From a virus: 64,000 nt of DNA. The DNA lies in IMG/VR virus record IMGVR_UViG_3300042508_000910. The stretch is one strand, 5' to 3'. The translations under genes were made by a program, and so were the position numbers. Below the pieces are notes generated by a model. That model did not search any database. It was not told the origin of the DNA and saw only the letters and a list, made by a program, of their open reading frames with translations. Shown one piece after another: positions 19,276 to 34,360 of the stretch. The stretch's first letter is position 1. Every line of letters begins with the position of its first letter.

Positions 19276-19606
19276 TTAAAAACTCCTTTAATGTTTTTAT
19301 TTTTTTTACTACAATTTTATCATTCCCTATTTTGTTATCTTCTAAATTATAGGTATTTTTTGATTCATTGTCAAGTATAAATGATTGTTTTTGGTTTAAT
19401 AGGTATTTTTTACCATCAAAAGAAAGCAACCAATCTAAAGATTTAAGGTTTTTTGATTTTACCTTGAACCAGAAGCTGGAATTTGGTTCGAATTTTATTA
19501 ATTTTTTCGCTTGACTTATTTCGTAACCCCAAGGTATATTCTTTGATTTTACGAATTTTTTCACGATAAAACAACACAATTTGTGTCCAGATAAGGTGTT
19601 TCTCAT
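19268..19606 (-). CDS. Hypothetical protein (probable start 19606)
   Basis: Coupled to recA; TTGAAA-17-TAAACT at 19618-19646 upstream. Confidence 0.55.
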   Translation of the reverse strand: MRNTLSGHKLCCFIVKKFVKSKNIPWGYEISQAKKLIKFEPNSSFWFKVKSKNLKSLDWLLSFDGKKYLLNQKQSFILDNESKNTYNLEDNKIGNDKIVVKKIKTLKEFLNG

Positions 19607-20471
19607 AGTCAAATAAGAGTTTATCATACTTTTTAAGATTTTTCAATACATATTTTGGACAATTATTTCTATTCAATAAAACTCTAGAAAAAGATTCTCC
19701 AGAATTTAAATCGTTTGACTTTCCATTTTTTATATTATCTTCTATTAAAATGGCATCATTATTTGGCCATTTATTATTTTCCTGATGAGAATAAGAGGAT
19801 ATTTTATATAAAATATCTTGAATATCTTTATAAAAATATGAATAATGCCATCCTGCATCGTTTAGTATAAAACATTCATCTTTAGGAGTTTTTGTTCTAA
19901 GATTTTGCATAGTTGATATATTATTTTTTTGAGTAATAATTGGGCTAGTTGATTTATTTGTGCCATTCATTTTATTATCAAATTTATAGAAATAATTATC
20001 TAAACTTAAACGTATATACTTTCTATTATTTTTATATATTTCATAAAAAGCATCTATAACCTTACTTTTCCTAGGAATTTCATCTAAATCACTTAAAATA
20101 ATTAAATCTTTTTCTGAACTATTTATTGGAAGAAATGGCAAATTAAGACCTTCCATTATTTTATTTCTTTGAAATGTTTCAGTTTCCCATGGATTTGGAG
20201 ATCTGATAAAATCATTGTTCTGGATATATATTATTTTATGATTAAATTTTTTTATTTTTTCTTTGTCTAAGATAAATCCTTTTCCATTTTTTGTAAATGT
20301 GCTACTTGATTCAACAATAACAAAAAAATCAACAACAGAATTTAATTCATTTAGTCTAACTTCTAAAAGATCGTTTTCATTAAAAAATAAAAAACAATCA
20401 TATATTTTAACAGAATTTCTATTGTTTTTAAAAAAATGATATTTTTTTACTTGTTCTAATAAATTTATCAC
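19443..20471 (-). CDS. GT17 (MGAT3-like GlcNAc transferase) glycosyltransferase
   Basis: DCFLFFNENDLLEVRLNEL, WETETFQRN, SDLDEIP, GWHYSY. Confidence 0.85.
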   Translation of the reverse strand: MINLLEQVKKYHFFKNNRNSVKIYDCFLFFNENDLLEVRLNELNSVVDFFVIVESSSTFTKNGKGFILDKEKIKKFNHKIIYIQNNDFIRSPNPWETETFQRNKIMEGLNLPFLPINSSEKDLIILSDLDEIPRKSKVIDAFYEIYKNNRKYIRLSLDNYFYKFDNKMNGTNKSTSPIITQKNNISTMQNLRTKTPKDECFILNDAGWHYSYFYKDIQDILYKISSYSHQENNKWPNNDAILIEDNIKNGKSNDLNSGESFSRVLLNRNNCPKYVLKNLKKYDKLLFDYEKHLIWTQIVLFYREKIRKIKEYTLGLRNKSSEKINKIRTKFQLLVQGKIKKP

Positions 20472-20478
20472 GTAATAT

Positions 20479-21531
20479 TTACACGTTAGATTTTATATCT
20501 GATTCTACCATTCTTTTTACAAGATTGTCAAAAGATATTTTTGGCGCCCAATTTAATTCTTTTCTCGCCTCCGAAGAATCTCCCAAAAGTAAATTAACTT
20601 CTGCAGGTCTATAAAATTTAGGATTCACGATCACAAGTGGTATAAAATTTCCATCTTCTTTTTTAAGATAAAAAGCTTCATCTTCGTCTCTTCCATCTCC
20701 AGTATAAATCCAATGCCCTTCTATATTTATTGTTCGAAACGCTTTTTCAATGAATTCTCTAATGCTATGCGTTTCATTGGAGGATAAAATATATTCTTTA
20801 GGTTTTTCTTGATTTAACATTAACCAAATACCTTCTATAAAATCCTCCGCATGACTCCAGTCTCTTTTTGCATCAAGATTTCCTAATTCAATAGGGCTAA
20901 ATTCTTTATTATTTTTAATTGAATGATATATTTTTGCAACACCTTTAGTAATTTTTCTTGTAACAAATTCTTCTCCTCTGCGTTCACTTTCATGATTGTA
21001 TAGAATAGAATGAATTGCATATAAATTGTAAGAATCTCTATAGACTTTGGTAATATGCCTTGCCGCTGCTTTAGCTGCACCATATGGGCTTCTAGGACGA
21101 ATTGGATGTTTAAGATCTTGTGGACTATATAATACATCACCCATTTCTTCACTAGATCCTGCAGAATAAAATCTACATTCTGGTGAGTATTTTCTTATTG
21201 CCTCTAAACATCTAAGAACTCCTACGGCGGTTGCATCAAAAGTTTGTAAAGGTATTTGCCAACTACTTCCAACGAAAGATTGCGCTGCAAAATTTACAAA
21301 AAAATCTGGTTTTATTTCTTTAACTATTTCATCTATAGAATTGCTATCAGAAAGATCAGCTATTAGCATTTTAAATCTGGAATTATTTAAATTATGTTTA
21401 ATATTTTCTAAATTTGGGTTAGAACTTCTTCTTCTAACTCCATAAACCATATAGTCTGTATTATTAAGCATATAGTCTACCATATATGAACCATCTTGAC
21501 CTGTAACACCTGTTATAATAATTTTCTTCAT
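20479..21531 (-). CDS. gmd: GDP-mannose 4,6-dehydratase
   Basis: ITGVTGQDGSY, AAQSFV, PRSPYGAAK, NHESERRGEEFVTRKI, FYRPAEV. Confidence 0.95.
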   Translation of the reverse strand: MKKIIITGVTGQDGSYMVDYMLNNTDYMVYGVRRRSSNPNLENIKHNLNNSRFKMLIADLSDSNSIDEIVKEIKPDFFVNFAAQSFVGSSWQIPLQTFDATAVGVLRCLEAIRKYSPECRFYSAGSSEEMGDVLYSPQDLKHPIRPRSPYGAAKAAARHITKVYRDSYNLYAIHSILYNHESERRGEEFVTRKITKGVAKIYHSIKNNKEFSPIELGNLDAKRDWSHAEDFIEGIWLMLNQEKPKEYILSSNETHSIREFIEKAFRTINIEGHWIYTGDGRDEDEAFYLKKEDGNFIPLVIVNPKFYRPAEVNLLLGDSSEARKELNWAPKISFDNLVKRMVESDIKSNV

Positions 21532-22700
21532 AATTTATTAAGTCCTTTTGTTAAAAATAAAATCTGTTCTTTTTTTAGATTTGAATATAAGCCTACATAA
21601 AATCCAAAATTATGAATATATGTTGAATTTGGATAGTCCTTAGTCTTATCGAAAAAATCTTTGTAGCAAGTTTGATATCCTAAATACCCAGATATAATTG
21701 GTCTATACTCTATCTTATTAATTCTGCAGAATTCAATTGCTCTATAATATAAATCTTTATCATTCTTCTTAATTATAATTGGTAAACAAAATGGAACGTC
21801 TTCTTGTAGCTCTCGTTCCTCTGGAAGAAAAAATTTATTTAAATTTAAATTAGATTTATATATATCATATAGTTCTTTTCTTCTAAAGGTATATTTTTTA
21901 ATTCTCTTAAAATCTAATTCGCCTATATAAGCATTTAGATCTGTATTTCTAAAATTATTTCCTAGAGAATAGAAATCAAATAGTGAGTCTACTTTGGGGT
22001 TGATGTATTCTTTATTATTAATGCCATATGTTAAGAGACTCCTTGTCATTCCGTGATTTCTATTCATTAAAAAGTATTCATATTCTTTTTGAGAGTTTGT
22101 AAAGATAAATCCTCCTTCTATTGATTGTAATTGATGACCAAAATAAGTTGATGTAGAAGATGTAAAGTAACTAGATATATTTTTACTATTATAGCTACCT
22201 AGCGTATTTTCACAATTATCCATCATGATGTTAATATTAAATTTTTTCTGCAACATTTTATAGAAATCAATATCAATTGAGTAACCTATTAAGGATGTTG
22301 GAAATATGCAAGCGATTTTTTTATGATTGCTTTTGACAAAATCTAAAAGCTTCTTTTTATCTAGAGAAAAATTATCTAAAGATATATCAATAAATTTTGG
22401 GGTCATGCCTTCTCTAATCCAAGGAGAACAAGAAGTTTGCCACGTTGTTGATGGAAAGATTACAATTTTCTTTGTTTTAGTATAAATATTATCTTTGATA
22501 TACATTGACATTAAAGTATTAGCTGTAGATCCGCTTGAAACAAATACGGCATATTTTACGCCTATAAAATTTGCCATGTTTTTTTCAAATGATTTTACAT
22601 GAATATCTTGTGTCCATCTATTTTTTGGATTAATGATAAAACTAGATATTTTTAATCTATCTAAAAATGTAAAATTATTAATATTAAGTGGCCAATTCAT
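21528..22700 (-). CDS. DegT/DnrJ-family PLP enzyme, ColD/RfbH-type 3-dehydratase
   Basis: FVSSGSTAN, DNCE, STYFGHQLQSIEGG with His at the usual Schiff-base Lys position; adjacent to gmd. Confidence 0.8.
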   Translation of the reverse strand: MNWPLNINNFTFLDRLKISSFIINPKNRWTQDIHVKSFEKNMANFIGVKYAVFVSSGSTANTLMSMYIKDNIYTKTKKIVIFPSTTWQTSCSPWIREGMTPKFIDISLDNFSLDKKKLLDFVKSNHKKIACIFPTSLIGYSIDIDFYKMLQKKFNINIMMDNCENTLGSYNSKNISSYFTSSTSTYFGHQLQSIEGGFIFTNSQKEYEYFLMNRNHGMTRSLLTYGINNKEYINPKVDSLFDFYSLGNNFRNTDLNAYIGELDFKRIKKYTFRRKELYDIYKSNLNLNKFFLPEERELQEDVPFCLPIIIKKNDKDLYYRAIEFCRINKIEYRPIISGYLGYQTCYKDFFDKTKDYPNSTYIHNFGFYVGLYSNLKKEQILFLTKGLNKL

Positions 22701-23733
22701 GTTGATTTAGATGTTTAACTAAGTTTTCTGCGGTATATTTCCACTTCCATTTATCTATAATAGCAGTTCTTGTATCTATTTTTCCATAAAAATTCCAATT
22801 AGAATATATATTCTTTAAAAGATCAGCATATTTCTCAATATCAAAATCATAAAATCTAGGTTCCTCTGAATAACCAAATGAACCATAACAATTTAAAAGT
22901 CCCCAATAATTAACTAATTCATTTAATTTATCACCAATATTTATTTCATTAGACGGTTTCAATAAAATTCCATAATCTCTATTAATTAAAACATTAGTCG
23001 GTTCAAAATCTCCTGTAACACACAGACAGTTGCAGGCTGACATTTCGTGCAATGGAAAACCCCACGAAGTCATTCTCAATAAGTTTAATCCTACATGAGA
23101 GGAAGAATACATATCTCTTATTTCTTGCCTTGTTAATCTTTTGGTAATATATTCAATGTTAGATCCTTTATTTTTAAGCTCTTGTATTCTAGTCTTTAGA
23201 GTATCTACATTAGTATTTGTATCTTTTATTATAAGTCTAACATTCTTATTGTTTTGAAATGCTATATGAAATGCTTGAAGCGTTAAGTCTAGACCAGATC
23301 TAACGTTACTGCTATTTACATGTATAAATGTAAATATATTATCTTTCGGTAAAGTCTGATGCCAAAAATCAGTATCACATCCGCAGTGTAATGTTTGACA
23401 GTTTATTCCTTCTTTTAAATATAAATTAGTAATCTGATTGCTCATTCCAAAAATAATTTTGTTTTGATCTTTTAACATTTGAATATGAAAATTTGTAATT
23501 TTATTTATTGTTTCCCAAACAGTTATATAGAATGATTTTTTATCTTTATATTGTTGATGAAAATTTAAACTAGATGGGAATCCTATATATTTTGCAGAAT
23601 CTTGATCAGAATAAAATCCAATTTCTTTAAGTCCTTGATTTAGTCCATAATTAATTACAGAGAATGATCCATGATTATCTTTAAAAGTTGGGTCTGAGTA
23701 AAATCTTGGATCTTCTTCAAATAAATGTATCAT
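22684..23733 (-). CDS. GT4-like glycosyltransferase
   Basis: TVWET, RSGLD, TSWGFPLHEM. Confidence 0.75.
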   Translation of the reverse strand: MIHLFEEDPRFYSDPTFKDNHGSFSVINYGLNQGLKEIGFYSDQDSAKYIGFPSSLNFHQQYKDKKSFYITVWETINKITNFHIQMLKDQNKIIFGMSNQITNLYLKEGINCQTLHCGCDTDFWHQTLPKDNIFTFIHVNSSNVRSGLDLTLQAFHIAFQNNKNVRLIIKDTNTNVDTLKTRIQELKNKGSNIEYITKRLTRQEIRDMYSSSHVGLNLLRMTSWGFPLHEMSACNCLCVTGDFEPTNVLINRDYGILLKPSNEINIGDKLNELVNYWGLLNCYGSFGYSEEPRFYDFDIEKYADLLKNIYSNWNFYGKIDTRTAIIDKWKWKYTAENLVKHLNQHELAT

Positions 23734-23737
23734 ATTT

Positions 23738-24757
23738 TTAATTTAGTATTTGATTAATAATATTATATAAGCTTATGGCACTTTTTTCCCATGTAAATTT
23801 TTGCGCCGAAATCGATCCATAAATACTAATTTTATTTCTTAAATCATTGTCATCTAAAAGCTGTCTCATTGAATGTCTAACGCTTTCTTTTACTGGTATG
23901 GCCCAATAAGGTTGTTTTGGATGCATTGATGGATCAAATAAATGATTTCTTAATCCTATAGAATTTAAATAATTAATATCAAAGTTTGTAAATGGCTCTA
24001 GATTAAATTTAACATGTATAGCAGAAAAATCATGAGTTGTATAATCTCTAGGTCCAGCATATGGAATAACGATTAAAGGAGTTCCAGTACTCATACATTC
24101 AATAGTCCTTAAATTCCATGTGCTAGTTTTATTTAAACAGATTGCTATATCTGCTTCATAATAAATATCTTTTTCTTGTTCAAAATTTTCAAGATGTCTA
24201 TCATCGTGAACAATCTCTACATTAAATTCTCTTGCTTTTTCTTGAATCCATGTCTTGAAAGTTGAGCTTGATTCTCTATCTCTTATGTAAAGTTTTACTG
24301 ATTTTGTATTTTTAAATTCTTCACAAAAATTTTCCACAATCAATTCTAGTCCTCCTCTTGAATTGGATTCCCCAATCCCTAATATAGTAAATTTATCTTT
24401 CTTATATTTTTCTTTGAATTTCCAAATATCTGAATCTACCCCTAAATTAAAATAATCGCATAAATTTTTTGGATATCCTGCTTCTAATATAAAATTAAGA
24501 TTATCTTTTGACACACCAAATATTGGTATTGGATGAACATTATTAAATATAAAATGTGGAAATATTAATTCATAAACAATAATCATTGCATCTGGATTAT
24601 GCCCATGTTTATTGCCTATACAATCATAAACTATTTTATAACCATCTTTAGAATAAATTCCTAGTTTTTCTGCAGATTTATTTAAATTAGAGATAATAAT
24701 ATCACTACTTCTATAAGGTCTATTATTTGGATCTCCTAAAACTTGAATTTTTTTCAT
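23738..24757 (-). CDS. GT4-like glycosyltransferase
   Basis: LGVD, RGGLE, STWNLRTIECMSTGTP, FTWEKSA. Confidence 0.75.
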   Translation of the reverse strand: MKKIQVLGDPNNRPYRSSDIIISNLNKSAEKLGIYSKDGYKIVYDCIGNKHGHNPDAMIIVYELIFPHFIFNNVHPIPIFGVSKDNLNFILEAGYPKNLCDYFNLGVDSDIWKFKEKYKKDKFTILGIGESNSRGGLELIVENFCEEFKNTKSVKLYIRDRESSSTFKTWIQEKAREFNVEIVHDDRHLENFEQEKDIYYEADIAICLNKTSTWNLRTIECMSTGTPLIVIPYAGPRDYTTHDFSAIHVKFNLEPFTNFDINYLNSIGLRNHLFDPSMHPKQPYWAIPVKESVRHSMRQLLDDNDLRNKISIYGSISAQKFTWEKSAISLYNIINQILN

Positions 24758-25518
24758 TTATATGGATTTAAATCATTAAAATATTTTACTCTGTCTTCTC
24801 TGCTTGTAGCTGGTAAATGTACAATAAAGTCTTCTGATTTAACATCATTCCAATATGCATTCATTTTATTATGCGGAAGAATATTAATTCTAGAAGAATC
24901 AATTTCATTATTTAAAAGAAAATGATGAAATGCTCTTTGATCCCACCAATTAGAACAATCAAAATGAAAATCTTTCTTAGCTAATAAAAATTCTAAAAAT
25001 GATACAGAATCTTTGCATTTTTTAATTAGAAACGTTCCAAGACATGGACCATTAACATTACAAACTGACAGCCAAAGAAATGGATCATTTTTTACTTTTA
25101 ATATTTTATTAGCTCTTTCTAGAGCTGGCATAGAAGAACAATTTATATTTTCATTAGAATGAATCAACACGCATTCATCAAGACTATCTAAAGATAAGAT
25201 ATTTTCAATTCTTATATTCTTATTGTGTATAAAAGCGTCTGCATCCATCCATAAGACATATTCATAATCATAATCTTGTAAAATTCTAGATATTATATAT
25301 ATTTTGTCCCAAGAAATTGGCAAGTTAATAAAGCCTTTTCTCTTATAAAGAAAATCATAATTATTTTCTTTGCAATATCTTAATTTATTTTGTAATGTTA
25401 AATCTCCAATATATTGATGATTATCATCATAAGCTGTATAAACTAAAATTTTTTTTATAGTATCTTCTGGTGTAAAAATACAAAAATTTAGATTTTGATC
25501 TAATTTATTCATTTGCAT
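24754..25518 (-). CDS. GT34 (GMA12/MNN10-like) glycosyltransferase
   Basis: SWDKI, YVLWMDADA, WWDQRAF, DFIVHL. Confidence 0.8.
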   Translation of the reverse strand: MQMNKLDQNLNFCIFTPEDTIKKILVYTAYDDNHQYIGDLTLQNKLRYCKENNYDFLYKRKGFINLPISWDKIYIISRILQDYDYEYVLWMDADAFIHNKNIRIENILSLDSLDECVLIHSNENINCSSMPALERANKILKVKNDPFLWLSVCNVNGPCLGTFLIKKCKDSVSFLEFLLAKKDFHFDCSNWWDQRAFHHFLLNNEIDSSRINILPHNKMNAYWNDVKSEDFIVHLPATSREDRVKYFNDLNPYK

Positions 25519-26323
25519 CTTTTAAAGATCTTAAAATCATCCCTATTCTAAAACTTAAATTTAAATTAGTTTTTAATTGATTATCAAAATATTTTTCTAA
25601 CATTATTTTTAACGATTTTCCATCTCTTTGATCTTCCCAATAAATTTTTATATCATTATTTAAAAACTCAAATTTGTTTATTCTTTTCTCGTATTGATTT
25701 CCAAAATTTGCATAAATTCTATTACTATTATAAGATAATTGCATTGAATAATTTTTATTATCGTCTAAATGAAAACCATTTAAACTCAAAATCTCTGGAT
25801 CAAAAATGTAAAATAATACCGACATTACATGACAACCATAGTCCCATAAAGCTGTATAATCTTTTCTAAATGGGCCTTGACCAGCATTTACAATTGTAAA
25901 ATGATTAAAATTATTATTTATATGACTTTTAACTTGATCTAGCGTAGGATTAAATAAATTAATATAATTTGTATAAAAAATATTTTTATTTTTACCTATT
26001 AATTCGTAAATTTCTTCATATTCTTTATTATTAAACATGCATGGTTTTTCGCATATAACATTTTTACCTTTTTCTAATGCATATTTAGATATATTAAAAT
26101 GATCTTTTGGATGAGTAGCTATAATTACTGTATCAACTTGATCGGTTATAGCATTTTTATAATTATCAGTCCATTCTGCTATTCTAAGCGACTCATCAAG
26201 ATTATCAAAAGTATCTCTACTCAACGAACTTAAATATTTAATATTAATATTTTTAAATTCTTTTAAATTTTTAATATAATTCTTGCCCCATTTTCCAATT
26301 CCTATAATAGATACATTATTCAT
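25505..26323 (-). CDS. Gfo/Idh/MocA oxidoreductase
   Basis: IIGIGKWG, IATHPKDH, VICEKP, WDYGCH. Confidence 0.85.
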   Translation of the reverse strand: MNNVSIIGIGKWGKNYIKNLKEFKNINIKYLSSLSRDTFDNLDESLRIAEWTDNYKNAITDQVDTVIIATHPKDHFNISKYALEKGKNVICEKPCMFNNKEYEEIYELIGKNKNIFYTNYINLFNPTLDQVKSHINNNFNHFTIVNAGQGPFRKDYTALWDYGCHVMSVLFYIFDPEILSLNGFHLDDNKNYSMQLSYNSNRIYANFGNQYEKRINKFEFLNNDIKIYWEDQRDGKSLKIMLEKYFDNQLKTNLNLSFRIGMILRSLKDANE

Positions 26324-26372: not shown

Positions 26373-27431
26373 TTAAGATTTATAATTTTCTTTTGCCCAA
26401 TTAAAAAATTTATAGATTCCCGTTTCTAGATCAACCGTTGGAATATATTCTAATTCTTTTTTAGCTTTAGATATGTCTGGACATCTTCTATGTGGTTCTG
26501 TGCTTGGATAGTTATTGGGATATGGTATTTCTATTATGTCACCAGAATAATTCGTTATTTTTTTAACAAGTCTTGCTAAATCTGGTATTGTAATTTCTGG
26601 AGTATCACATCCAATATTATATATTTCACCAGCTCTGCCTTTTATTAAAACTTTTAAAAATCCAATTATTGCGTCTGTTATAAAACAAAAAGTTCTAGTG
26701 TTGTTATTGTTTCCATAAACTTTTAATGGTTGATTATTTAAAACTCCTTTAATAAAATTTGGTAAAACTCTTGTATCAGACTGATGAGCATATGAATATA
26801 CATTAAATGGTCTAATTACTTTGACATTAACATCATGATGAGTATAAAATATATAACTTAAAGTTTCTACAACCATTTTTCCTATATCATAACAGCTTCT
26901 AGTGTCCATTGATGGACATGAACCAATAAAAGTCTCTGGTGTTGGTATTTGATCATCTGGAGGCGTTCCGTAGACCTCTGAAGATGAAAAAGTTATAATA
27001 GACTCTACTGAATGTTGGTATGCAAGTTCTAATACATTTAAAATTCCAGAGTAGCTTACATCTAAAGTTTCTAATGGGTATTTTTTATATACGGCTGGTG
27101 CTGCAATTCCTGCTGCAGCAATTATATAATCTATTTTTACGGAATTTTTTAATTTGGTTTTTAAAGGCTGAGTGATATCATGTCGAATGATTTCTATATT
27201 AGGATCATCGTATATTTTTTCATCTATATCGCTTCCAACAATATAATTATCAACAGATATTATCTTAGCTGGTTTCTTTAAAATATTTTTATTTATAAAT
27301 TGAAAGAAAGCTAAAAAATTTCTACCTAAAAAACCAGATCCTCCAGTTATTAATATAGTTTTTCCTTCAAAACGAAAAATATCGTTTTTAAGACCATTTG
27401 CAATATCTAGAAGATCTTGTTCTGGAATCAT
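26373..27431 (-). CDS. NAD-dependent SDR, UDP-glucuronate decarboxylase (UXS)-like
   Basis: TGGSGFLG, SSSEVYG, RSCYDIGK, RPFNVY, TRTFC, RRCPDI. Confidence 0.8.
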   Translation of the reverse strand: MIPEQDLLDIANGLKNDIFRFEGKTILITGGSGFLGRNFLAFFQFINKNILKKPAKIISVDNYIVGSDIDEKIYDDPNIEIIRHDITQPLKTKLKNSVKIDYIIAAAGIAAPAVYKKYPLETLDVSYSGILNVLELAYQHSVESIITFSSSEVYGTPPDDQIPTPETFIGSCPSMDTRSCYDIGKMVVETLSYIFYTHHDVNVKVIRPFNVYSYAHQSDTRVLPNFIKGVLNNQPLKVYGNNNNTRTFCFITDAIIGFLKVLIKGRAGEIYNIGCDTPEITIPDLARLVKKITNYSGDIIEIPYPNNYPSTEPHRRCPDISKAKKELEYIPTVDLETGIYKFFNWAKENYKS

Positions 27432-27826
27432 TTATTATATAAATCCTTTAGACTATAGTCAACTCTAGTAGTATCATTTTCATAGTTGGCACTTGTTCTA
27501 CTTAATGTACTATAACAATGAAATACTGTTTCTACTGGGAAATACATTTCATGCACAACATTTGGTGGAGTATAAAATAACTCCCCCTCTTTAATAATTT
27601 CCATTGTTATTTTATCTGGATTATCTATTGGTTGTTCAAAATAGTGAATTTCGCCTTTTGTAACAAGACAATAATGTGAATCTGCTTTATGCCAATGTTT
27701 GGCTCTCGTACTATTTGGTTCGCTAGATATAATTGAAACGCTATTAATAGTCTGATTTTCTAAAATCATATCTATTGATCCTCTTGCGTCTTTATATGAT
27801 GGTCCTAGATTAATTTTGGTTTGCAT
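27428..27826 (-). CDS. Cupin-fold NDP-sugar isomerase/epimerase (likely start MQTKIN)
   Basis: DARGSI, RAKHWHK, TPPNVVH; AAGGAG upstream of the ATG at 27826. Confidence 0.7.
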   Translation of the reverse strand: MQTKINLGPSYKDARGSIDMILENQTINSVSIISSEPNSTRAKHWHKADSHYCLVTKGEIHYFEQPIDNPDKITMEIIKEGELFYTPPNVVHEMYFPVETVFHCYSTLSRTSANYENDTTRVDYSLKDLYNK

Positions 27827-28736
27827 TTCTTGGGTTCTCCTTAAGATATTTATTATTCCATGTTGGAGAGCATACAAATGTTTGTCCTTCTGGCACAATC
27901 ATTCCATTGACTCCTCCTCCACATATATGTTCTGATATACTATAATCACATATACTTAAAAATGGAAAATTCTTTGATAAATCTATATTATTTAATTCTA
28001 AATTCATTTCTCCGTATTTTGATACCGTACTACTCATCCATCCGTCAGATGCATTTTTTCTGGTATCATGTGAGACATTTTTATTAAAAGCTCTATCCAT
28101 TCTCCTCCAAAAGTCATTATATTGTATTTTTTTGGATTGTTCAAGATTTTTAATAACTTGTTTGAGCCTTTTCCAATGAAGAATCGTGCAACCGCAAGAA
28201 TTGCTTACTCCTTGGACTTTAATTAATCCAGATTTAGTATTTAAATCAAAAGGAATATAGAGATTATTTCTACTTTTCAAATCCTCACTAAAACATTCCT
28301 TCATTATATCTGGAAATGTTTCATGTGTCTTTTTCCTATCATACATATCTGGGTGATCTGTGCCAGCTATTGCTATAGTATTTTCAGAAGCCTCGAAAAC
28401 ATCTACACAGTCTCTTAGCCAATCTTTTCTCCACACATAATCAGATTCTAGTATACAAGCTATATCCAAATCATCATTTTGATGCATTAAATTGTATACT
28501 CTTTCAAAAGAATATCCTATTCCATAGTTTTTACCATGCAGAAGTAAATTAATAGGAAATTTATCAGAATATTTTAATGAAAAATCTAATAAGGCTTGCT
28601 GCATATTAGGCAAAGATCCATCGTCTATAATCCAAGCTTCATTTGGCTTAATACTTGTATTATTTATAGCCGAATATATTGATTCTCCTAAGATTTTAGG
28701 TCTATTGTATGTTAAAAAATAGAATGCAATATTCAT
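27810..28736 (-). CDS. GT2-like glycosyltransferase
   Basis: LTYNRP, IIDDGS, LESD. Confidence 0.75.
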   Translation of the reverse strand: MNIAFYFLTYNRPKILGESIYSAINNTSIKPNEAWIIDDGSLPNMQQALLDFSLKYSDKFPINLLLHGKNYGIGYSFERVYNLMHQNDDLDIACILESDYVWRKDWLRDCVDVFEASENTIAIAGTDHPDMYDRKKTHETFPDIMKECFSEDLKSRNNLYIPFDLNTKSGLIKVQGVSNSCGCTILHWKRLKQVIKNLEQSKKIQYNDFWRRMDRAFNKNVSHDTRKNASDGWMSSTVSKYGEMNLELNNIDLSKNFPFLSICDYSISEHICGGGVNGMIVPEGQTFVCSPTWNNKYLKENPRNANQN

Positions 28737-29959
28737 ATAATTTTTAATTGTGGCATAGGAATAATAAATTTTCCTTTATATTGTTTATTATTGTTTATAA
28801 TTGCTTCTGCCATATTCCATACAGAAATAATACAATAATCTGTAGGATTTTCATAAAAATAATCTCTATTAACTATAGGTATCTTCTTACTTGGAGAAAA
28901 TTTACCTTGTTTTAAGGGAGAATCATCAACAACATAGTCTATAATTGTAGCGTCTAGTTCAAAGAATTTGCTAAATAAGGCAAATTTAGCTGGACATCCA
29001 TAGCAAGAAATCCTGCCGCCTTTAGATTTGATATCTTTTATAAAACTTTGTAAATCATTCTTTAAAACATTTAATTTATGTAAAAAATCTTCATAAGTTT
29101 TATTTGAATATAGATTAAAATCTTTTTCATTTTGAACAAATTTTAGAACATTCTCTGATGTCTTATATATTTGATTCTGAATCTTTTTTGCATATATTCT
29201 AAATGATCCGCCTTGAGTATTTACTCTTTTTATATCAAAAATTTCCATTTTATAAGAAGCTAAATACTTAATTAATGGTATAATGCCATAATATTGCAAA
29301 TGCTCATGATAAACTTGATCAAAATATAAACCCTTTATTGTATCATAAAGATATGCATTTTCAAAAATAAATACCCCATCATCTGCTAAACAATGGACTA
29401 TCCCATCCATCATAGAATCTAACTGGTCAACATGTGCAAATACATTATTCGCACAGATAATATCTATTGCTCCGAATTTATTTTTAATTTTAGTTGCGCT
29501 TTCAATATTGAAAAAATCTGTTATAATATTAGCATTTTGAATTGATTTCGCTCTTTCAGATATGTTTTCTGCTGGATCAATTCCTATTAGCTTGCCAAAT
29601 TTAATATTATCAAACTCCTTCAAGAGGATTCCGTCATTTGAACCTATTTCTAATATATTAGCATCATTTTTATAAAAACGACTTTTGATATCTTCGGCAT
29701 ATTCACTAAAATGTTTTATGAGAGATGGTGAATCTGAGCTTGAGTATAAATAATTAGAGAATAATATCTTTGGATCAATTGTTTCTTTTAATTGTACATG
29801 GCCACAGTTAGAACATTTTATAACAGTCAATGGATATAAATTTTCATTTTCATCTTGAGTTTTTGGATAAGAATTAGCTAAAGGACTTAATCCAAAATCG
29901 ATAACAGTTTGAACATGCTCTTCCTTGCAAAGACGGCAATTATTAATATTTTTGTACAT
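28733..29959 (-). CDS. NDP-sugar C-methyltransferase (TylCIII/EryBIII-like)
   Basis: CRLC...CSNCGHVQL, EIGSNDG, NNVFAH, YHEH, YGCPAK, DDSPLKQG. Confidence 0.9.
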   Translation of the reverse strand: MYKNINNCRLCKEEHVQTVIDFGLSPLANSYPKTQDENENLYPLTVIKCSNCGHVQLKETIDPKILFSNYLYSSSDSPSLIKHFSEYAEDIKSRFYKNDANILEIGSNDGILLKEFDNIKFGKLIGIDPAENISERAKSIQNANIITDFFNIESATKIKNKFGAIDIICANNVFAHVDQLDSMMDGIVHCLADDGVFIFENAYLYDTIKGLYFDQVYHEHLQYYGIIPLIKYLASYKMEIFDIKRVNTQGGSFRIYAKKIQNQIYKTSENVLKFVQNEKDFNLYSNKTYEDFLHKLNVLKNDLQSFIKDIKSKGGRISCYGCPAKFALFSKFFELDATIIDYVVDDSPLKQGKFSPSKKIPIVNRDYFYENPTDYCIISVWNMAEAIINNNKQYKGKFIIPMPQLKII

Positions 29960-30018: not shown

Positions 30019-30846
30019 TTATCTAATATTTTTATATAAATTATATATATCTAATTCAGAATTTATTACGGCTTGATGAGCGTATGGTTCTGCTCCAAGG
30101 TGTATGGAATATGCATATGAAGGCGAAAATGCATAAATTTTTATATTTTTATTATATATTTTGTAAGCTTTATCAAAAGCATCCTCTGGATGCAGAAACT
30201 TAAAATATTCTTCCCATTTGCTTTTAATAATTCTGCAAATATTTATAAGATCTTCTGTCTTATTTACTCTTGGTTGAAAATTATACCAATATCTACCTTT
30301 ATATATCTCTTGAGAAAGATCTGGCACTTCGATTTCGTGACGAATAAACCACTCCACAGGATCTGTTGGTATTTCATTGTGGCTAAGTCTTAAAAAATGT
30401 ATTCCTTCTAGATTTGGATCATTTTCTAATTCAGAAATACTTTTTTCTATATAAAAATCTAAAGAATGTTGTTTGATAATTATTGGCGAGTCGTCTTCTA
30501 GAACAAAAACGTATTTAGATAATTTTGAAGAATTTTCTATAAAAAAAGAACAGATATCATGTGCAATTCCGCCTATAAATTTTTGTCTATTAATATATCT
30601 ATCATCATCTTGTATGTTATGGTTATCTTTTATGATAAATATTTGAAACCCATATCCTGAAAAAAAATTAATAATGTTATTTGCATTATCTAAATCATTT
30701 TCAAAAATCTTTAAACTGAGAAATTTATTCTTAAAGATCTTGTCTTCATTATTATTAAATAAATGACGTATTGTTATTTTATAGTCATCATATCTTCCAT
30801 ATCTATTTTTAGAGCTAATAAAGACGCAAAGATCAATATCAGACAT
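30019..30846 (-). CDS. Putative GT-A glycosyltransferase
   Basis: YVFVLEDD and SIHLG; inside the GT island. Confidence 0.5.
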   Translation of the reverse strand: MSDIDLCVFISSKNRYGRYDDYKITIRHLFNNNEDKIFKNKFLSLKIFENDLDNANNIINFFSGYGFQIFIIKDNHNIQDDDRYINRQKFIGGIAHDICSFFIENSSKLSKYVFVLEDDSPIIIKQHSLDFYIEKSISELENDPNLEGIHFLRLSHNEIPTDPVEWFIRHEIEVPDLSQEIYKGRYWYNFQPRVNKTEDLINICRIIKSKWEEYFKFLHPEDAFDKAYKIYNKNIKIYAFSPSYAYSIHLGAEPYAHQAVINSELDIYNLYKNIR

Positions 30847-30872: not shown

Positions 30873-31658
30873 CTATTTTTCATCTTTATTGAGTACTGGC
30901 TTTGGTAAATTAAATTTAGAATAAAACTCTTCATTTAATTTTAATTTATCATTATCTTCATCCCAAGCGTAGGAACAAACTCCGTATCTTAAACTTTGAA
31001 AATTTAGTTTTCTTTTCAAATATTCTTTTGATCCAACCCAGCTATAATGTTTTGGAAATATTAAATTTTTTGGTATAGTTAAATGTGATCGATCAACATC
31101 CTTAGAATTATCATCAAAATCTACAAGGTCATCTTTATAAAAACTTTTTAGTCTTGGATTTTTCTTAGTAAACCATATTCTTGGAACAATAAAATCGTCT
31201 ACCCACGTATTATAATCTATACAATAATTTTTAAAATTAACTTTAAAATAATATACTAAATCATTATTTTTAATATACCTAATCATTTTCTTTATTTCAT
31301 TTAAATCCCAAATTTCATCAACATTTACCATTATTAAAAGATCAATGTCATATTTTTTTAATTCTAAGAAATTATTTGTCCACATCTGATATTCTTTCTG
31401 TGGTGTATCATATATGATCAAATCATCTATTATGCCTGATTCTTTTTGCTCTTTAATCAACTCCAATGTTCCATCTGTGGAATAAATTGGAAATCCTAAA
31501 TTATAAGTTTCTTCAAAACATCCGTGTCCAAAGCATATTTTAATATCTTCAATTTCTGGTATTATAGTTTTATCTTTCTTTAATTCATTCCAAGATAAGA
31601 AACACTTTTCTACTAGCTCCTTTGAATCATATCCTATAGATGATATTCCAATTTTCAT
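30873..31658 (-). CDS. Putative GT2-like glycosyltransferase
   Basis: STDGT, VNVDE, HYSW. Confidence 0.6.
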   Translation of the reverse strand: MKIGISSIGYDSKELVEKCFLSWNELKKDKTIIPEIEDIKICFGHGCFEETYNLGFPIYSTDGTLELIKEQKESGIIDDLIIYDTPQKEYQMWTNNFLELKKYDIDLLIMVNVDEIWDLNEIKKMIRYIKNNDLVYYFKVNFKNYCIDYNTWVDDFIVPRIWFTKKNPRLKSFYKDDLVDFDDNSKDVDRSHLTIPKNLIFPKHYSWVGSKEYLKRKLNFQSLRYGVCSYAWDEDNDKLKLNEEFYSKFNLPKPVLNKDEK

Positions 31659-32599
31659 ACAATTACATCCTTTACATTCCTATTATTGATAATAACTGCT
31701 TCGTGCGCCCTATCTTTAAGTTCTTTAGCAATTTTTGTAATCGTACCCTCAAACTCGAAATCAAAATTTGTTATAAATTTATCAGATGATATTGCGAAGT
31801 CATATACTTTAGAATGAAGTTTCTTATTAATATTTTCTTCTTTTGTTGGCTCACCATCTATAATGGATAATTTTACATCTTCAAAAACTTCGGCTACTTT
31901 TCTGCCAATTATATCTACTGTAGAATTAAAAGAGGCTAAATTATAAACTCCCCTTAAATCTCTTTCATTAAGAATTATTTTTTCAATAGCTCTGCATAAA
32001 TCGCCAATGTATAAAATTGGTCTTTTAATCATGGGATTGAACACTCTGATCTCTCCTTTTGTTATTGCACTATTTACCATCGAATTTATCATTATGTCGT
32101 TCCTAATATTTCGAGAAAATCCATTTACTGTACCAAATCTCAATCCATAATATTCAACATTATCAAATATTTTTGCATAATAGTCTATTTCGGCTTTTGA
32201 AAGATCGTAAAAACTTCCAGCGACATATTCTTGACATTCTTCAGTTACTACATTTCTATTAACGTTTCCATATACGCTTGAGCTACTAGCATAAATAAAC
32301 TTTTGATTAGGATTAATCTTTAAAAGAAGCTCTATAAAATATTCAACATTATTTTTAAATGCTCCTAACATATTATCTTCACACATTTTTACGCTTGAAT
32401 GTCCAGCAAGTAATACTATATCTGTAAACTGTGATAGATATTCTTTGCTCAAATCTTTAAAATTTATTCTAAAGTTTTTAATGTTAGGGTTACCAAATAT
32501 CTCTAAATCAACAGATTCAACATTGTATTTACCATTTAAATATGTAAAAAGACTACTTCCTATATAGCCACAACCACCAATAATTAATATTTTTTTCAT
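31655..32599 (-). CDS. NAD-dependent sugar epimerase/reductase (SDR)
   Basis: GGCGYIG, ASSSSVYG, YDLSK, LRFGTV. Confidence 0.85.
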   Translation of the reverse strand: MKKILIIGGCGYIGSSLFTYLNGKYNVESVDLEIFGNPNIKNFRINFKDLSKEYLSQFTDIVLLAGHSSVKMCEDNMLGAFKNNVEYFIELLLKINPNQKFIYASSSSVYGNVNRNVVTEECQEYVAGSFYDLSKAEIDYYAKIFDNVEYYGLRFGTVNGFSRNIRNDIMINSMVNSAITKGEIRVFNPMIKRPILYIGDLCRAIEKIILNERDLRGVYNLASFNSTVDIIGRKVAEVFEDVKLSIIDGEPTKEENINKKLHSKVYDFAISSDKFITNFDFEFEGTITKIAKELKDRAHEAVIINNRNVKDVIV

Positions 32600-33501
32600 T
32601 AAAATTTAAAGTAAAAGATGTCTTTCCAATTATTATATCCTTTATTTATTAAATCTAAAAGAATTTTTCTATCAATCATTGTTGTTTGTGGGATAGTAAT
32701 ATTATTATATACAACCTTCGCTATGCTTTCTTTATCAAGATATATTGGTAAACACTCTTCAAAATCTTCTTTCCAGCGTATCATCCATGGAATTCTGCCA
32801 TATTGAGGATCAAGTACTAGTCTTGGCAAACCTAATTGATAGGCGATATGACTTGGGCCATTACATGTAAATACTCCATAGACACTTTTAGTAAGATAAT
32901 CTAAAGAATCTTCAAAGGATGGATCTTCATGTATAAAAACATTTGGTGGAAAATTAATTGAAAAATCACCTAGATTATCAATTTTTTTATCCCAACTTTT
33001 TATCATAGGAAAATATATAATATATTGTGGTAGATATTCTGCTATAGATTTTAATAGGCCTGGAATATCATTATAAACATATCCTTCTGTGGTGCTACAT
33101 AAACCGCAATATATTATGTTTTCTTTTTTAGAAAAGTGTTTTGTTAATGTCTTAGTTTTTTTAATTAATTGAGGATTAAGGCCATAATCTTCATATTTAA
33201 ATGCTAAAGGATGTTTAAATAATAAATCTGGAACATTATATGTTATATCAGATCCATATTTGTTTTTTACTTCGTTTAAGATTAAATCATCTTTTAATAA
33301 TGCATTATCATTTGCATATTTTTCGTCTATTTGCTTTAATTCAAATTCATTTCCAAAAATATACCATAAAGGTTTATAAACATCATTTCGTGTTGATATT
33401 AGATTTTTATGAGGTATATTTTTTTGATTTAAAAGATATGAAATTTGAAGGGATAATATGCAATCTCCAAGTCCATGTCCACCGATATTAACTAATCTCA
33501 T
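32599..33501 (-). CDS. GT9-like glycosyltransferase
   Basis: GHGLGDCIL, TCNGPSHIAYQLGLP. Confidence 0.65.
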   Translation of the reverse strand: MRLVNIGGHGLGDCILSLQISYLLNQKNIPHKNLISTRNDVYKPLWYIFGNEFELKQIDEKYANDNALLKDDLILNEVKNKYGSDITYNVPDLLFKHPLAFKYEDYGLNPQLIKKTKTLTKHFSKKENIIYCGLCSTTEGYVYNDIPGLLKSIAEYLPQYIIYFPMIKSWDKKIDNLGDFSINFPPNVFIHEDPSFEDSLDYLTKSVYGVFTCNGPSHIAYQLGLPRLVLDPQYGRIPWMIRWKEDFEECLPIYLDKESIAKVVYNNITIPQTTMIDRKILLDLINKGYNNWKDIFYFKF

Positions 33502-34360
33502 ATTTCATGATACTTTCTTCCAAGGCTTCAACAATATGTCTCATATTAAAACCAGTCTTTAAGATCTTTGAATTGTCTAATACGCAATTTGATCTTGGTG
33601 TTTTTGCTGCTGTAGAATAAAAATCTTCATCATTATCAAAAAATATAAATTTCTTATTAGATATATATTTATTTATTAACTTTGCAACAAATTTTGTATC
33701 TATAGATCCTGTATTGGTTAGATTATATATTCCTGTTTCACATTCGCTCTCAGGCAAGTAAAAACATCCTTTAACAAATTCATCTGTGTGAGATAGCGAA
33801 TTGACAGCGTTCAATGCCTTTTCATAGTTTAATAATTTAGTTATATAGTTTTTCCTATTAGAGATTTCGTTAAATGGTATTCTTAATCTACATACATATA
33901 CTTTTTTGTCATTTTTTAAAAATTTTTCTGCTTCAGCTTTAACTCCGCTATAATAAGAGCATGGAAGCGAATCAAAGCAAAAATTTGGCTTATCTTCTTC
34001 TGTAAAACCTTTGCCATTATTGTCTCCATTATAAATACAGCCGCTTGATATATGTATCCATTTTAAATTAAGTTCATTTGCTATAATAGATATGTTTTGA
34101 GGTATTTTATAATTTTTGTCTTTACATTCTTCTTTATTTGTTTCACATCCATCTACATTAGGATATCCAGTATAACCAGCGCAATTTATAATTAGATCGG
34201 GCTTGATTTCTCTAGTAATCTTAAATAGATTATCTTTATCTAGCAGATCGCATTTTTCTCTATCAATCGATATAAAATCTATAGATCTGGTATTAAAATA
34301 ATTTTTGAAAGCTTGTCCAATATAACCTTTTGATCCCAATAAAACTATTTTATTAAGCAT
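33488..34360 (-). CDS. RmlD / NRS-ER-type NDP-4-keto-6-deoxyhexose (epimerase-)reductase
   Basis: GSKGYIG, NCAGYTGYPNVDGCE, SSGCIY, YSGVK, RLRIP, PRSNC. Confidence 0.85.
   Translation of the reverse strand: MLNKIVLLGSKGYIGQAFKNYFNTRSIDFISIDREKCDLLDKDNLFKITREIKPDLIINCAGYTGYPNVDGCETNKEECKDKNYKIPQNISIIANELNLKWIHISSGCIYNGDNNGKGFTEEDKPNFCFDSLPCSYYSGVKAEAEKFLKNDKKVYVCRLRIPFNEISNRKNYITKLLNYEKALNAVNSLSHTDEFVKGCFYLPESECETGIYNLTNTGSIDTKFVAKLINKYISNKKFIFFDNDEDFYSTAAKTPRSNCVLDNSKILKTGFNMRHIVEALEESIMKYEIS

Follow-up and report, generated by a model that had tools for sequence, protein, structure and literature searches.

A hypervariable glycan locus in a fixed slot of an abundant lake phage lineage, with virion proteins as candidate acceptors

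Positions 19443-34360 of the window, by which we mean the whole 64,000-nucleotide stretch analysed (IMG/VR record IMGVR_UViG_3300042508_000910), hold a ~15 kb island of 16 co-oriented, tightly packed genes on the minus strand, with neighbouring ORFs either overlapping by 1-17 nt or separated by gaps of at most 59 nt (Table 1). An ORF check recovered all 16 where the original prediction, made from the letters alone, had placed them, and its division into eight glycosyltransferase (GT)-like genes (GT17, two GT4, GT34, GT2, two GT-A-like and one GT-B/GT9-like) and eight nucleotide-sugar enzyme genes (Gmd, ColD-type 3-dehydratase, UXS-like, 3-C-methyltransferase, NRS/ER-type reductase, cupin, SDR and Gfo/Idh/MocA) held up as well; the classes rest on Pfam, NCBIfam and PDB matches and, for two GT genes without a Pfam match, on structure only. 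We add a 17th gene to the stretch, the conserved 119-aa ORF p119, which overlaps the 3' end of the GT17 gene and has no Pfam match. The source of the window is a phage, as had been proposed: it carries terminase, portal, capsid-like protein, DNA polymerase, RNR and tmRNA genes, and 359 viral contigs are syntenic with it. The lineage is one of very abundant lake phages of ~170 kb; terminase matches point to SPbeta-like and Bacillus phages, and the backbone is, as judged by sequence, not T4-like.

Table 1. Features of the island, its borders and the core glycosyltransferases, with the basis of each assignment
Feature	Assignment	Coordinates	Strand	Basis
Core GT pair	Glycosyltransferases outside island	4948..8020	-	Pfam
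p119	Conserved small protein between island and RecA, right border	19268..19627	-	tblastn matches in 72 loci
I01	GT17-family glycosyltransferase	19443..20471	-	Pfam 7.6e-36
I02	GDP-mannose 4,6-dehydratase (Gmd)	20479..21531	-	Pfam 1.8e-106; TIGR01472 359 bits
I03	ColD-type PMP-dependent GDP-4-keto-6-deoxymannose 3-dehydratase (DegT family)	21528..22700	-	PDB 2gms (ColD) 1.6e-34, top match
I04	GT4 glycosyltransferase	22684..23733	-	Pfam Glycos_transf_1 4.2e-11
I05	GT4 glycosyltransferase	23738..24757	-	Pfam Glycos_transf_1 4e-7
I06	GT34-family glycosyltransferase	24754..25518	-	Pfam 8.6e-21
I07	Gfo/Idh/MocA oxidoreductase	25505..26323	-	Pfam 1e-17, N-domain
I08	UDP-glucuronate decarboxylase (UXS)-like SDR	26373..27431	-	PDB human UXS1 2b69 2e-43
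I09	Small cupin	27428..27898	-	Generic cupin Pfam matches ~1e-5
I10	GT2 glycosyltransferase	27810..28736	-	Pfam 6.1e-13
I11	Nucleotide-sugar 3-C-methyltransferase, TylC3/TcaB9 type, Zn-binding N-domain	28733..29959	-	Pfam Methyltransf_14 1.3e-37, Methyltransf_13 6.9e-20
I12	GT-A-fold protein	30019..30846	-	Atlas structure only
I13	Weak GT2-like (GT-A) glycosyltransferase	30873..31658	-	Pfam GT2 E 0.0016, under cut-off
I14	NDP-sugar epimerase/reductase (SDR)	31655..32599	-	Pfam Epimerase 9e-20; PDB 6dnt 1e-12
I15	GT-B-fold, GT9-like glycosyltransferase	32599..33501	-	Structure only; no Pfam match
I16	RmlD-family 4-reductase, NRS/ER (3,5-epimerase/4-reductase) type	33488..34360	-	Pfam RmlD_sub_bind 1.4e-30
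Promoter	TTGACA-17-TATAAT	34368..34396	-	sigma-70 consensus, 12/12
u100	Conserved flank gene, left border of variable region	34393..34695	-	70-86% identity in 19 relatives, always right before island

The enzyme matches (ColD, UXS, TylC3-type and NRS/ER-type) predict rare sugars, in line with the initial claim. In I03 a His aligns with the catalytic His188 of ColD, where aminotransferases have Lys; I08 carries the motifs SSEVYG and YDIGK; and the nearest PDB relatives of I11 (4rv9, TylC3, 1.2e-68) are antibiotic-pathway enzymes. I16 is closest to Arabidopsis NRS/ER (4qqr, 3.7e-32), also matches UDP-L-rhamnose synthase (7jid, 3e-22), and its homologue adjoins Gmd in the short islands of three relatives (L003, L004 and L008), while I14 has YxxxK at 131 and no TDE dehydratase motif. 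The cupin I09, with its D-x-R-G and H-x-H motifs, probably acts as an RmlC/FdtA-like NDP-ketosugar epimerase or isomerase; its true start probably lies downstream of the TTG. I07 matches the NCBIfam UDP-GlcNAc 3-dehydrogenase model at 3e-17, far under the cut-off of that model, and is possibly a sugar 3-dehydrogenase. As for the GT-like genes, the final ~60 codons of I01 overlap the next gene and its C-terminus is conserved to residue 341; homologues of I01 were found in 19 of 47 loci and those of I13 in nine relatives, I10 is 69% identical to its homologue in L140, and a tblastn search of 144 related loci returned no homologue of I04, I05 or I12. With neither a Pfam nor a PDB sequence match, I12 is GT-like by structure only, its Atlas model reaching TM 0.59-0.66 against GT2/GT25-like clusters. 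The same qualification applies to the GT9-like I15: its AF2 model is moderate (pLDDT 68), Foldseek leads to GT-B enzymes with the GT9 member WaaC on top (2gt1, TM 0.50), and one neighbouring Atlas cluster has GT9 in 19% of its members. As the gene that opens the island after u100, I15 is semi-conserved in four relatives (L087, L091, L109 and L140); its homologues are 62-65% identical.

The consensus promoter reported ahead of the island is confirmed; the 64 kb contain just one other perfect sigma-70 site. Its -10 box ends 7 nt ahead of the ATG at 34360, which is a leaderless-type layout; 11/12 promoters lie within the island at 30008, 27462 and 20531, and 19 relatives have a promoter-like site (9-11 of 12 matches) after u100. 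The phage encodes sigma-like factors of its own. The island would be an early or middle operon, transcribed by the host sigma-70 RNA polymerase.

Synteny maps show that the order of the slot is constant in the lineage: u100, the island, then Gmd-p119-RecA, with homology breakpoints falling at u100 and at Gmd. What the slot holds varies: island length ranges over ~5-24 kb, and the 510 island ORFs of 47 relatives fall into ~195 families. Gmd, present in 45 of the 47, is by sequence the conserved anchor of the island. Even phages with RecA 92% identical have only Gmd (84%), GT17 (53%) and RmlD (56%) in common with the window, and the islands of relatives also hold GT10, GT11, GT14, GT15, GT25, GT31, GT47 and GT61 genes as well as FkbM/TylF methyltransferases and TPP enzymes. 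The island is a hypervariable glycan locus in a fixed slot, with a different gene set in each relative.

The proposed combination of conserved core GTs and a swappable island is upheld: outside the island, at least 51 contigs keep a full-length 638-aa GT4, with identities of 46-81%. This protein contains a 4-Cys insert and ends in a GT9 N-lobe, with the overlapping next ORF starting with the GT9 C-lobe. The original list of four outside GT genes (4948, 6104, 38639 and 59495) needs amending, since ORF 4948 is just the donor half of this split GT9, ORF 59495 is GT4-like but marginally under the Pfam cut-off, and ORF 38639, a DUF6734 protein, is at most a candidate GT. Two GT genes sit within the replication block, which, together with the finding that LPS/teichoic-acid-related phage GTs attach mono- to trisaccharides to 5hmC (bioRxiv 10.1101/2023.12.21.572611), might suggest that the GTs put sugars on modified bases of the phage DNA and so evade restriction. 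We consider this highly improbable. In a complete and three partial relatives, neither a ThyA-like hydroxymethylase nor a C5-cytosine methyltransferase turned up, and the dTMP synthase of the window is an ordinary ThyX. As judged by sequence, the known routes of DNA glycosylation are absent, although the search of those four relatives for Tet/JBP dioxygenases, which gave no match, missed its positive control too. Furthermore, 8-12 GTs with deoxy-, dideoxy- and C-methyl-sugar pathways go far beyond any known DNA glycan, and metagenomic assemblers had no trouble with this DNA.

Hydrophobic segments above KD 1.6 are missing from all island proteins, as expected from the predicted solubility of the products; three or more such segments occur in none of the 510 island ORFs of the 47 relatives, and more than three in none of the 214 ORFs of a complete relative (171,916 bp). 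The reported lack of a flippase, polymerase and polyprenyl-phosphate transferase extends to both sets, neither of which contains a look-alike of a flippase, polymerase or priming transferase, and the ~195 island families and the complete genome likewise have no ligase or ABC-transporter permease. The island chemistry requires no phage-encoded membrane protein. Because the ABC-transporter route to O-antigen can be carried through with soluble GTs alone, and priming, export and ligation could come from the host, the missing flippase and polymerase are compatible with glycans of the host envelope. Under this alternative, which we regard as rather unlikely, phage GTs working in the cytoplasm would lengthen an undecaprenyl-linked primer of the host, and a host ABC transporter or flippase, together with the ligase, would display the polysaccharide, blocking superinfection by competing phages or re-adsorption of progeny to debris; an arms race with other phages would explain the hypervariability. 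The genes are of the kinds found in O-antigen/capsule clusters (Gmd, ColD, RmlD-like, GT2, GT4, GT9 and GT25), the GC content of the island (26.6% vs 29-32% in the flanks) is low as is typical of O-antigen loci, the promoter is of an early, host type, the island is found in all relatives while varying at strain level, and comparable islands of pelagimyophages (PMC7029224) and cyanophages (PMC12801897) have been read as host-surface modification, itself a hypothesis. However, structure-matched export genes, absent here, are almost always present in bacterial loci. The phage O-antigen modifications known from experiment all use membrane proteins of temperate phages (Gtr, Oac, polymerases), and no lysogeny gene is visible in the window.

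The mechanism that we favour instead, for which we infer the order of steps, timing, exact sugars and acceptor, would draw on host pools of GDP-mannose, UDP-glucuronate and, probably, UDP- or dTDP-hexose to make unusual sugar donors. Gmd would yield GDP-4-keto-6-deoxymannose, from which ColD would strip the 3-OH to give a colitose-like 3,6-dideoxyhexose; the 3-C-methyl branch would fall to the TylC3-type enzyme and the stereochemistry to the cupin and the NRS/ER-type reductase, and UXS would provide UDP-xylose. In the cytoplasm, the eight soluble GTs would then build up the glycan step by step on the acceptor itself, with no lipid carrier: conserved GTs (the 638-aa GT4, the split GT9 and the GT17 beside Gmd) would prime a constant acceptor, and variable GTs would extend it to a strain-specific glycan.

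We tentatively place this glycan on an exposed virion protein of the fibre or head surface, by analogy with chloroviruses, Megavirinae and mycobacteriophages (Freeman et al. 2023, cited in PMC12619734). To our knowledge, soluble virus-encoded GTs with sugar pathways and a proven non-DNA target make a virion glycan in every case. Three weak leads point towards a protein acceptor: the likeness of the core GT4 model (pLDDT 85) to the chlorovirus NY-2A GT B736L, its top structural match (3oy2, E 3e-17); the 4-Cys insert, which recalls the metal finger that TibC uses to hold its beta-helical protein substrate (PMC4358343); and the S/T-G excess of the 1325-aa fibre (62 observed vs 23.9 expected, z 9.1; lambda J, z -0.5). 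The first two leads are analogies. The bias in virion proteins originally claimed is strong in this fibre but modest elsewhere (z 2-3), and the excess could be a turn motif of beta-rich proteins. We counted against a virion acceptor that the island lies beside replication genes under a host-type promoter, outside the late structural operons, and that bacterial O-antigen/capsule clusters use soluble GTs too; by way of a priming enzyme, an ABC exporter and a ligase of the host, the phage product could reach the cell surface. Since the sequence names no acceptor, we also weighed another cytoplasmic one (a non-virion phage protein, small molecule or free oligosaccharide), for example a decoy, a protective compound or a sink that draws off host GDP-mannose and UDP-GlcA to stop host capsule synthesis. 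Early expression would suit it, the methyltransferase-rich and TPP-enzyme island variants look like natural-product sugar tailoring, and the antibiotic-pathway kinship of I11 points the same way. Nevertheless, no island contains aglycone-forming genes (PKS, NRPS etc.) and a simple metabolic sink needs neither eight GTs nor strain-specific diversity, which makes this reading quite improbable.

Virion glycosylation has precedents. Freeman et al. are said to have described, in 2023 in Cell Host Microbe, O-glycosylation of mycobacteriophage virions by a few genes beside the structural genes, with the C-terminal tails of capsid and tail-tube proteins modified. There, phage proteins are reportedly modified within the bacterial cytoplasm by soluble phage-encoded GTs and methyltransferases, with no need for a lipid carrier, as proposed here, whereas our island has 16 or more genes with full sugar pathways and lies beside replication genes. 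Megavirinae, whose glycosylation gene clusters are clade-specific, and chloroviruses, which glycosylate their capsids, encode nucleotide-sugar pathways and soluble GTs in clusters of 6-33 genes, make rare bacterial-like sugars and differ in cluster content between close relatives (PMC10117803; PMC9614988); like the island, they employ Gmd and a reductase of the UDP-L-rhamnose-synthase type. In contrast, ours is a tailed phage with a bacterial host, its predicted sugars are a ColD-type 3,6-dideoxyhexose, a 3-C-methyl sugar and xylose, the variation is at strain level in one fixed slot, and virion attachment is a candidate. The autotransporter heptosyltransferases TibC/Aah, which are GT-B enzymes similar to WaaC and bear a 4-Cys metal finger, hyperglycosylate Ser of beta-helical surface proteins in the cytoplasm before export (PMC4358343); the GT9-like enzymes and the 4-Cys insert of the phage resemble them by analogy only. 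No sequence homology to TibC can be detected, and the insert lies in the GT4 part.

Bacterial O-antigen/capsule loci, such as those of colitose-containing E. coli O55/O111, share the enzyme classes, the Gmd-ColD pair, a GC content below the surroundings and hypervariability at a fixed slot between conserved flanks, but neither the island nor the complete relative genome has their priming transferase, Wzx/Wzy, Wzm/Wzt or ligase. The 'LPS-gene' or host-recognition hypervariable islands of cyano- and pelagimyophages (P-SSM2, S-SCSM1/2R; PMC7029224, PMC12801897, PMC9602691) likewise belong to large aquatic phages of streamlined hosts and are variable, GT-rich (up to 13) and equipped with sugar-nucleotide enzymes, including GDP-mannose-pathway genes, without export genes. 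Our island differs in its unrelated backbone, in holding glycan genes only, without tail fibres, and in its conserved Gmd anchor and defined borders. The stretch is best read as the 'glycotype locus' of large lake phages that form an abundant lineage: while GT-rich variable islands have been published for cyano- and pelagimyophages, a slot with defined borders and hypervariable content in this lake phage lineage is new here.

The island is filled by sixteen ORFs on the minus strand with small overlaps and gaps of at most 59 nt, and its GC content (26.6%) is lower than that of either flank in a window that is itself AT-rich (29% GC). Our gene calls, based on sequence-family evidence and PDB look-ups, agree with the original prediction throughout, including its ‘ColD-like’, ‘UXS-like’ and ‘NRS-ER’ assignments. 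The phage thus encodes its own nucleotide-sugar enzymes (Gmd, ColD-type, UXS-like, 3-C-methyltransferase, NRS/ER-type and SDR), alongside eight clustered glycosyltransferase (GT)-like genes whose products lack hydrophobic segments. PDB sequence searches with I12 and I15, the fifth and second genes to be transcribed, returned no matches.

Features of the window; island genes are numbered in order of transcription
Feature	Position (strand)	Size	Assignment
Fibre-like protein	175-4152 (+)	1325 aa	LamG/ConA-like lectin domain (Pfam 3.4e-9)
Start of replication-block gene	4927-4962 (-)		Leaderless-type
Core GT pair	4948-8020 (-)	638 aa (GT4)	GT4 and split GT9
Start of replication-block gene	13374-13409 (-)		Leaderless-type
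p119	19268-19627 (-)	119 aa	Right border gene, before RecA
Second perfect promoter	19374-19346		Precedes RecA
Island	19443-34360 (-)	16 genes	
Gene 16 (I01)	19443-20471 (-)		GT17
Gene 15 (I02)			Gmd (1.8e-106)
Gene 14			DegT family, best match ColD; His replaces the Schiff-base Lys of aminotransferases
Genes 12 and 13			Two GT4 in succession
Gene 11			GT34
Gene 10			Gfo/Idh/MocA protein
Gene 9			UXS-like decarboxylase (human UXS1, 2e-43)
Gene 8			Small cupin (motifs DxRG and HxH)
Gene 7			GT2
Gene 6			Sugar 3-C-methyltransferase, TylC3/TcaB9-type (1e-68)
Gene 5 (I12)	30019-30846 (-)	275 aa	GT-A according to Atlas model
Gene 4			GT2-like, weak
Gene 3			SDR epimerase/reductase
Gene 2 (I15)	32599-33501 (-)	300 aa	No Pfam match; GT-B fold in model (pLDDT 68), best TM WaaC
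Gene 1 (I16)			RmlD-family reductase, closest to Arabidopsis NRS/ER and a UDP-L-rhamnose synthase
Start of gene 1	34360-34396 (-)		Leaderless-type
Island promoter	34396-34368		TTGACA-17-TATAAT
u100	34393-34695		Left border gene
Second LamG-domain protein	35251-35970		
DUF6734 gene	38639		
Ser-rich protein (u165)	42774-43271 (-)	165 aa	
Capsid-like protein	43303-44688 (-)	461 aa	
Sigma-like protein	56343-57020 (-)		Sigma-70 region 2 (E 1.8e-5)
Sigma-like protein	60910-61515 (-)		Sigma-70 region 2 (E 3.7e-4)

As judged by enzyme family, Gmd would yield GDP-4-keto-6-deoxy-D-mannose, the ColD-type enzyme the 3,6-dideoxy-4-keto intermediate of the colitose pathway, and the UXS-like decarboxylase UDP-xylose; the 3-C-methyltransferase, acting with the cupin and the NRS/ER-type or SDR reductases, may generate C-methyl-branched and/or epimerised 6-deoxyhexoses. 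Minimal islands in close relatives retain just Gmd, a reductase and two GT17 genes, which suggests a GDP-6-deoxyhexose core. Since the island of the window has neither a sugar-1-phosphate nucleotidyltransferase nor a UDP-glucose dehydrogenase, GDP-mannose and UDP-GlcA must be supplied by the host.

The lineage is very common in IMG/VR, where a RecA-like protein query recovered 359 related stretches, and our literature search found it described nowhere. Besides RecA, the window encodes the large terminase, portal and capsid-like proteins, a family-A DNA polymerase (in pieces), primase, DnaB, RNR, PhoH, two sigma-like proteins and a tmRNA, the last being one-piece and uninformative as to the host. 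A megablast search of 50,697 cultured-phage records with the island gave zero matches, and the best terminase relatives by tblastn, SPbeta-like, Bacillus and Clostridioides phages, are only 24–26% identical, so that cultured phages supply neither a recognised relative nor a host. Genome-wide checks were made on G001, a CheckV-complete relative of 171,916 bp (31% GC).

The proteins of the window were mapped to 144 related loci, for which RecA or the 426-aa head-region protein u426 served as anchor. The constant frame runs from the capsid-like gene through u426, u186, a variable segment, u91, another variable segment, u150 and u100 to the island, and resumes with Gmd, GT17 (where present), p119, RecA and the replication module. 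Nucleotide homology with the relatives ends at u100 and its promoter and restarts at Gmd, the content in between being replaced. The right border gene p119, conserved in 72 loci, overlaps the 3′ end of GT17 by approximately 180 nt; the overlap is dual-coding, with both frames kept in the GT17-bearing relatives L001–L010. The two variable segments upstream of the island (u186–u91 and u91–u150) span 0.4–6 kb in L081–L144. DUF6734 genes are found in these segments in L090 and L112 and beside u426 in L087 and L137, and a gene whose place differs in this way between relatives is mobile within the region. Four contigs (L045/L095, L048/L100, L049/L132 and L080/L144) differ from the window in having their u426 and RecA homologues on different strands, the result of a genome inversion or else of circular-permutation/assembly effects.

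Every relative has an island, ranging in length from ~5 to ~24 kb (from the end of u100/u150 to the start of RecA; 15.1 kb in the window). Clustering at 30% identity sorts the 510 ORFs from the 10 kb upstream of RecA (47 loci) into ~195 families, most of them confined to a single locus; 45 of the 47 loci have Gmd. Relatives whose RecA is 92% and whose DnaB is 96% identical have only Gmd, GT17 and the reductase in common with the window, and neither the two GT4 nor the 275-aa GT-A of the window has a homologue in any related locus. A five-gene module is shared with one locus, L140, at 65–71% identity. The Pfam tally of the 195 family representatives comprises glycan chemistry only: SDR epimerases, dehydratases and reductases, DegT enzymes, nucleotidyltransferases, TPP enzymes (used for branched-chain sugars), C- and O-methyltransferases (FkbM, TylF, Methyltransf_24) and GTs of families 2, 4, 10, 11, 14, 15, 25, 31, 47 and 61.

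Glycan islands have been on record in large aquatic phages for two decades, to our knowledge with no target assigned. Published GT-rich variable islands include those of P-SSM2 and S-SCSM1/2R (13 GTs) and the HRC of pelagimyophages (PMC7029224, PMC12801897, PMC9602691). Like the islands of T4-like aquatic myophages, ours is a variable set of GT and sugar-enzyme genes at a fixed place in a large syntenic genome (PMC7029224); however, while theirs sit among tail-fibre genes, here the backbone is non-T4 and no fibre genes lie inside.

The predicted consensus promoter of the island proved real: it is a perfect TTGACA-17-TATAAT, one of just two in the 64 kb, the other preceding RecA from within the p119 ORF. 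Its −10 box ends 7 nt ahead of the ATG and there is no Shine-Dalgarno sequence. Sites with 11 of 12 matches are also present inside the island, and in the relatives a promoter-like site follows u100 with 9–11 of 12 matches, which is suggestive at most in DNA this AT-rich. No upstream site of at least 11 matches precedes the capsid-region genes of the window. Starts of the leaderless type, with the −10 box 6–7 nt ahead of the ATG and Shine-Dalgarno absent, are shared by the first gene of the island and two replication-block genes. Two small proteins match sigma-70 region 2 and may act as phage sigma factors on late genes.

No island protein has a 19-residue window above KD 1.6, in keeping with the expectation that the products are soluble. 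The predicted lack of flippase, polymerase, ligase and priming transferase extends to the lineage: our hydropathy screen (used in place of a trained TM predictor) detected no ORF with three or more hydrophobic segments among the 510 island ORFs of 47 relatives and none with more than three in the complete G001, and in the window three segments are reached only by antisense shadow frames. Wzx, Wzy, WecA or WbaP-like proteins, with their 5–12 helices, would be unable to escape such a screen. While the island resembles bacterial O-antigen and capsule loci in combining nucleotide-sugar genes and GTs in one co-oriented, strain-variable cluster, it differs from them in lacking a priming polyprenyl-phosphate transferase, Wzx/Wzy and an ABC exporter. 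Serotype-converting Gtr/Oac systems rely on the membrane proteins GtrA, GtrB and GtrC, or on an acetyltransferase, in temperate phages, whereas membrane proteins are absent here and no integrase was seen within the window. These differences weigh against the possibility that the glycan remodels the host envelope, a reading that we regard as possible though doubtful. It draws on the likeness of the gene repertoire and the GC dip to O-antigen loci, on soluble GTs sufficing for ABC-transporter-type O-antigen synthesis, and on the island adjoining replication genes under a host sigma-70 promoter, the phage’s own sigma-like factors presumably serving late genes; it has also been published, as conjecture, for analogous pelagi- and cyanomyophage islands (PMC7029224, PMC12801897).

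At least 51 contigs carry a full-length version of the 638-aa GT4 of the core pair, which lies outside the island (46–81% identity), so the proposed scheme of a conserved core GT and a swappable island holds. The GT4 carries a CxxC...CxxC insert at approximately residues 269–290. Its C-terminus bears the acceptor (N) lobe of a GT9-type GT-B enzyme, the donor (C) lobe of which starts the next, overlapping ORF in a different frame; as the arrangement is kept in at least 51 relatives, the split is not a sequencing error. The only PDB match of the GT9 half is WaaF (E 0.1). We consider this Zn-finger GT4/split GT9 a candidate priming machine. Of the four outside GTs originally predicted, the 638-aa GT4 stands, and the gene at 38639 is at most a putative GT: it is a DUF6734 member that has an invariant HxDxD, but its hhalign comparison with a GT34-like profile is not significant (Prob 0.55%). 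DUF6734 and a GT4-like gene stand among the structural and packaging genes.

What is the glycan put on? Other viruses are established to glycosylate their virions with enzymes of their own and, as far as we know, the particle has been the target in every proven non-DNA case of soluble virus-encoded GTs combined with sugar pathways (chloroviruses, Megavirinae, mycobacteriophages). Together with the complete absence of export genes across hundreds of cassettes and the universal presence of the locus, this precedent favours virion proteins as the acceptor, to which we give somewhat less than an even chance. Autonomous glycosylation in chloroviruses and Megavirinae, where the glycan is bound covalently to virion proteins, likewise involves nucleotide-sugar enzymes of the virus’s own and several clustered soluble GTs, in sets that vary from clade to clade; the present gene set is hypervariable across 47 or more relatives. 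In the mycobacteriophage type, GT genes occur inside or beside the structural operon, and the glycans are placed on C-terminal tails of capsid or tail-tube proteins. The island of the window has head-associated genes on one side and RecA on the other. A weak lead towards virion proteins is the predicted likeness of the 638-aa GT4 to a chlorovirus GT, its best structural match; another weak lead is its four-Cys insert, which is analogous to the substrate-gripping metal finger of TibC (PMC4358343). The fibre provides a further weak lead in its S/T-G excess: ~46% of its glycines follow Ser or Thr (62/136, z 9.1; lambda J, −0.5).

The fibre also contains a lectin domain, and a second LamG-domain protein is encoded in the variable stretch immediately before the island. 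Ser-rich stretches occur in u165 and u333. The former is Ser-rich after ~35 N-terminal residues that it has in common with the 461-aa capsid-like protein (…DPSEKRISLVYNS…FQA.DFSKID.IE…), and the latter, a 333-aa protein encoded beside them, ends in C-terminal tandem GSGSDGSSGGNSIGTDLVD repeats.

Another cytoplasmic acceptor appears improbable to us, and modification of phage DNA highly so. Phage DNA glycosylation uses a hydroxymethyl- or hydroxy-pyrimidine route (ThyA-like, or C5-MTase with TET/5mYOX), which is missing from G001 and the three partial relatives G002–G004: PF00303 (ThyA) and PF00145 (C5-MTase) are absent, as is PF12851 (Tet_JBP), though the positive control of the latter search was silent. 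Furthermore, the window encodes ThyX, and the scale of the system far exceeds that of known DNA glycans (bioRxiv 10.1101/2023.12.21.572611).

Returning to the virion, we tentatively propose, as a possibility that we rate well below even, that this globally abundant lake-phage lineage maintains an always-present, cytoplasmic ‘glycotype’ locus that would coat the particle with strain-specific rare-sugar glycans, primed by the GT4/split GT9 on the S/T-G turns of the fibre. The locus would be O-antigen-like, with a fixed slot, a Gmd anchor, low GC and hundreds of interchangeable sugar/GT cassettes, and the sugars would be 3,6-dideoxy, C-methyl-branched and xylose-containing.

New here are a lineage with a non-T4 backbone, the clean architecture (borders, Gmd anchor, promoter), the documented degree of variability, a lack of membrane components throughout the lineage, the predicted set of sugars (ColD-type dideoxyhexose, 3-C-methyl sugar, xylose) and the candidate priming machine. 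The lineage is an unusually clean case, in which the borders are sharp and both an anchor gene and a candidate priming enzyme are conserved; public data hold hundreds of natural variants, and reconstitution is uncomplicated by membrane components. Whatever the acceptor, the island is a rich source of rare-sugar enzymes (ColD-type dideoxy, 3-C-methyl, branched-chain) and compact soluble GTs. If the glycan is on the host, a lytic phage would have a new, export-gene-free means to re-dress the infected cell. If it is on the virion, lake phage particles would wear strain-specific sugar coats, with bearing on adsorption, grazing, particle stickiness, immune and lectin recognition and the delimitation of phage ‘species’; and should the tentative virion-coat proposal be true, the autonomous glycosylation of giant viruses would gain its first counterpart in a bacteriophage, and phage particles would have serotypes under diversifying selection.
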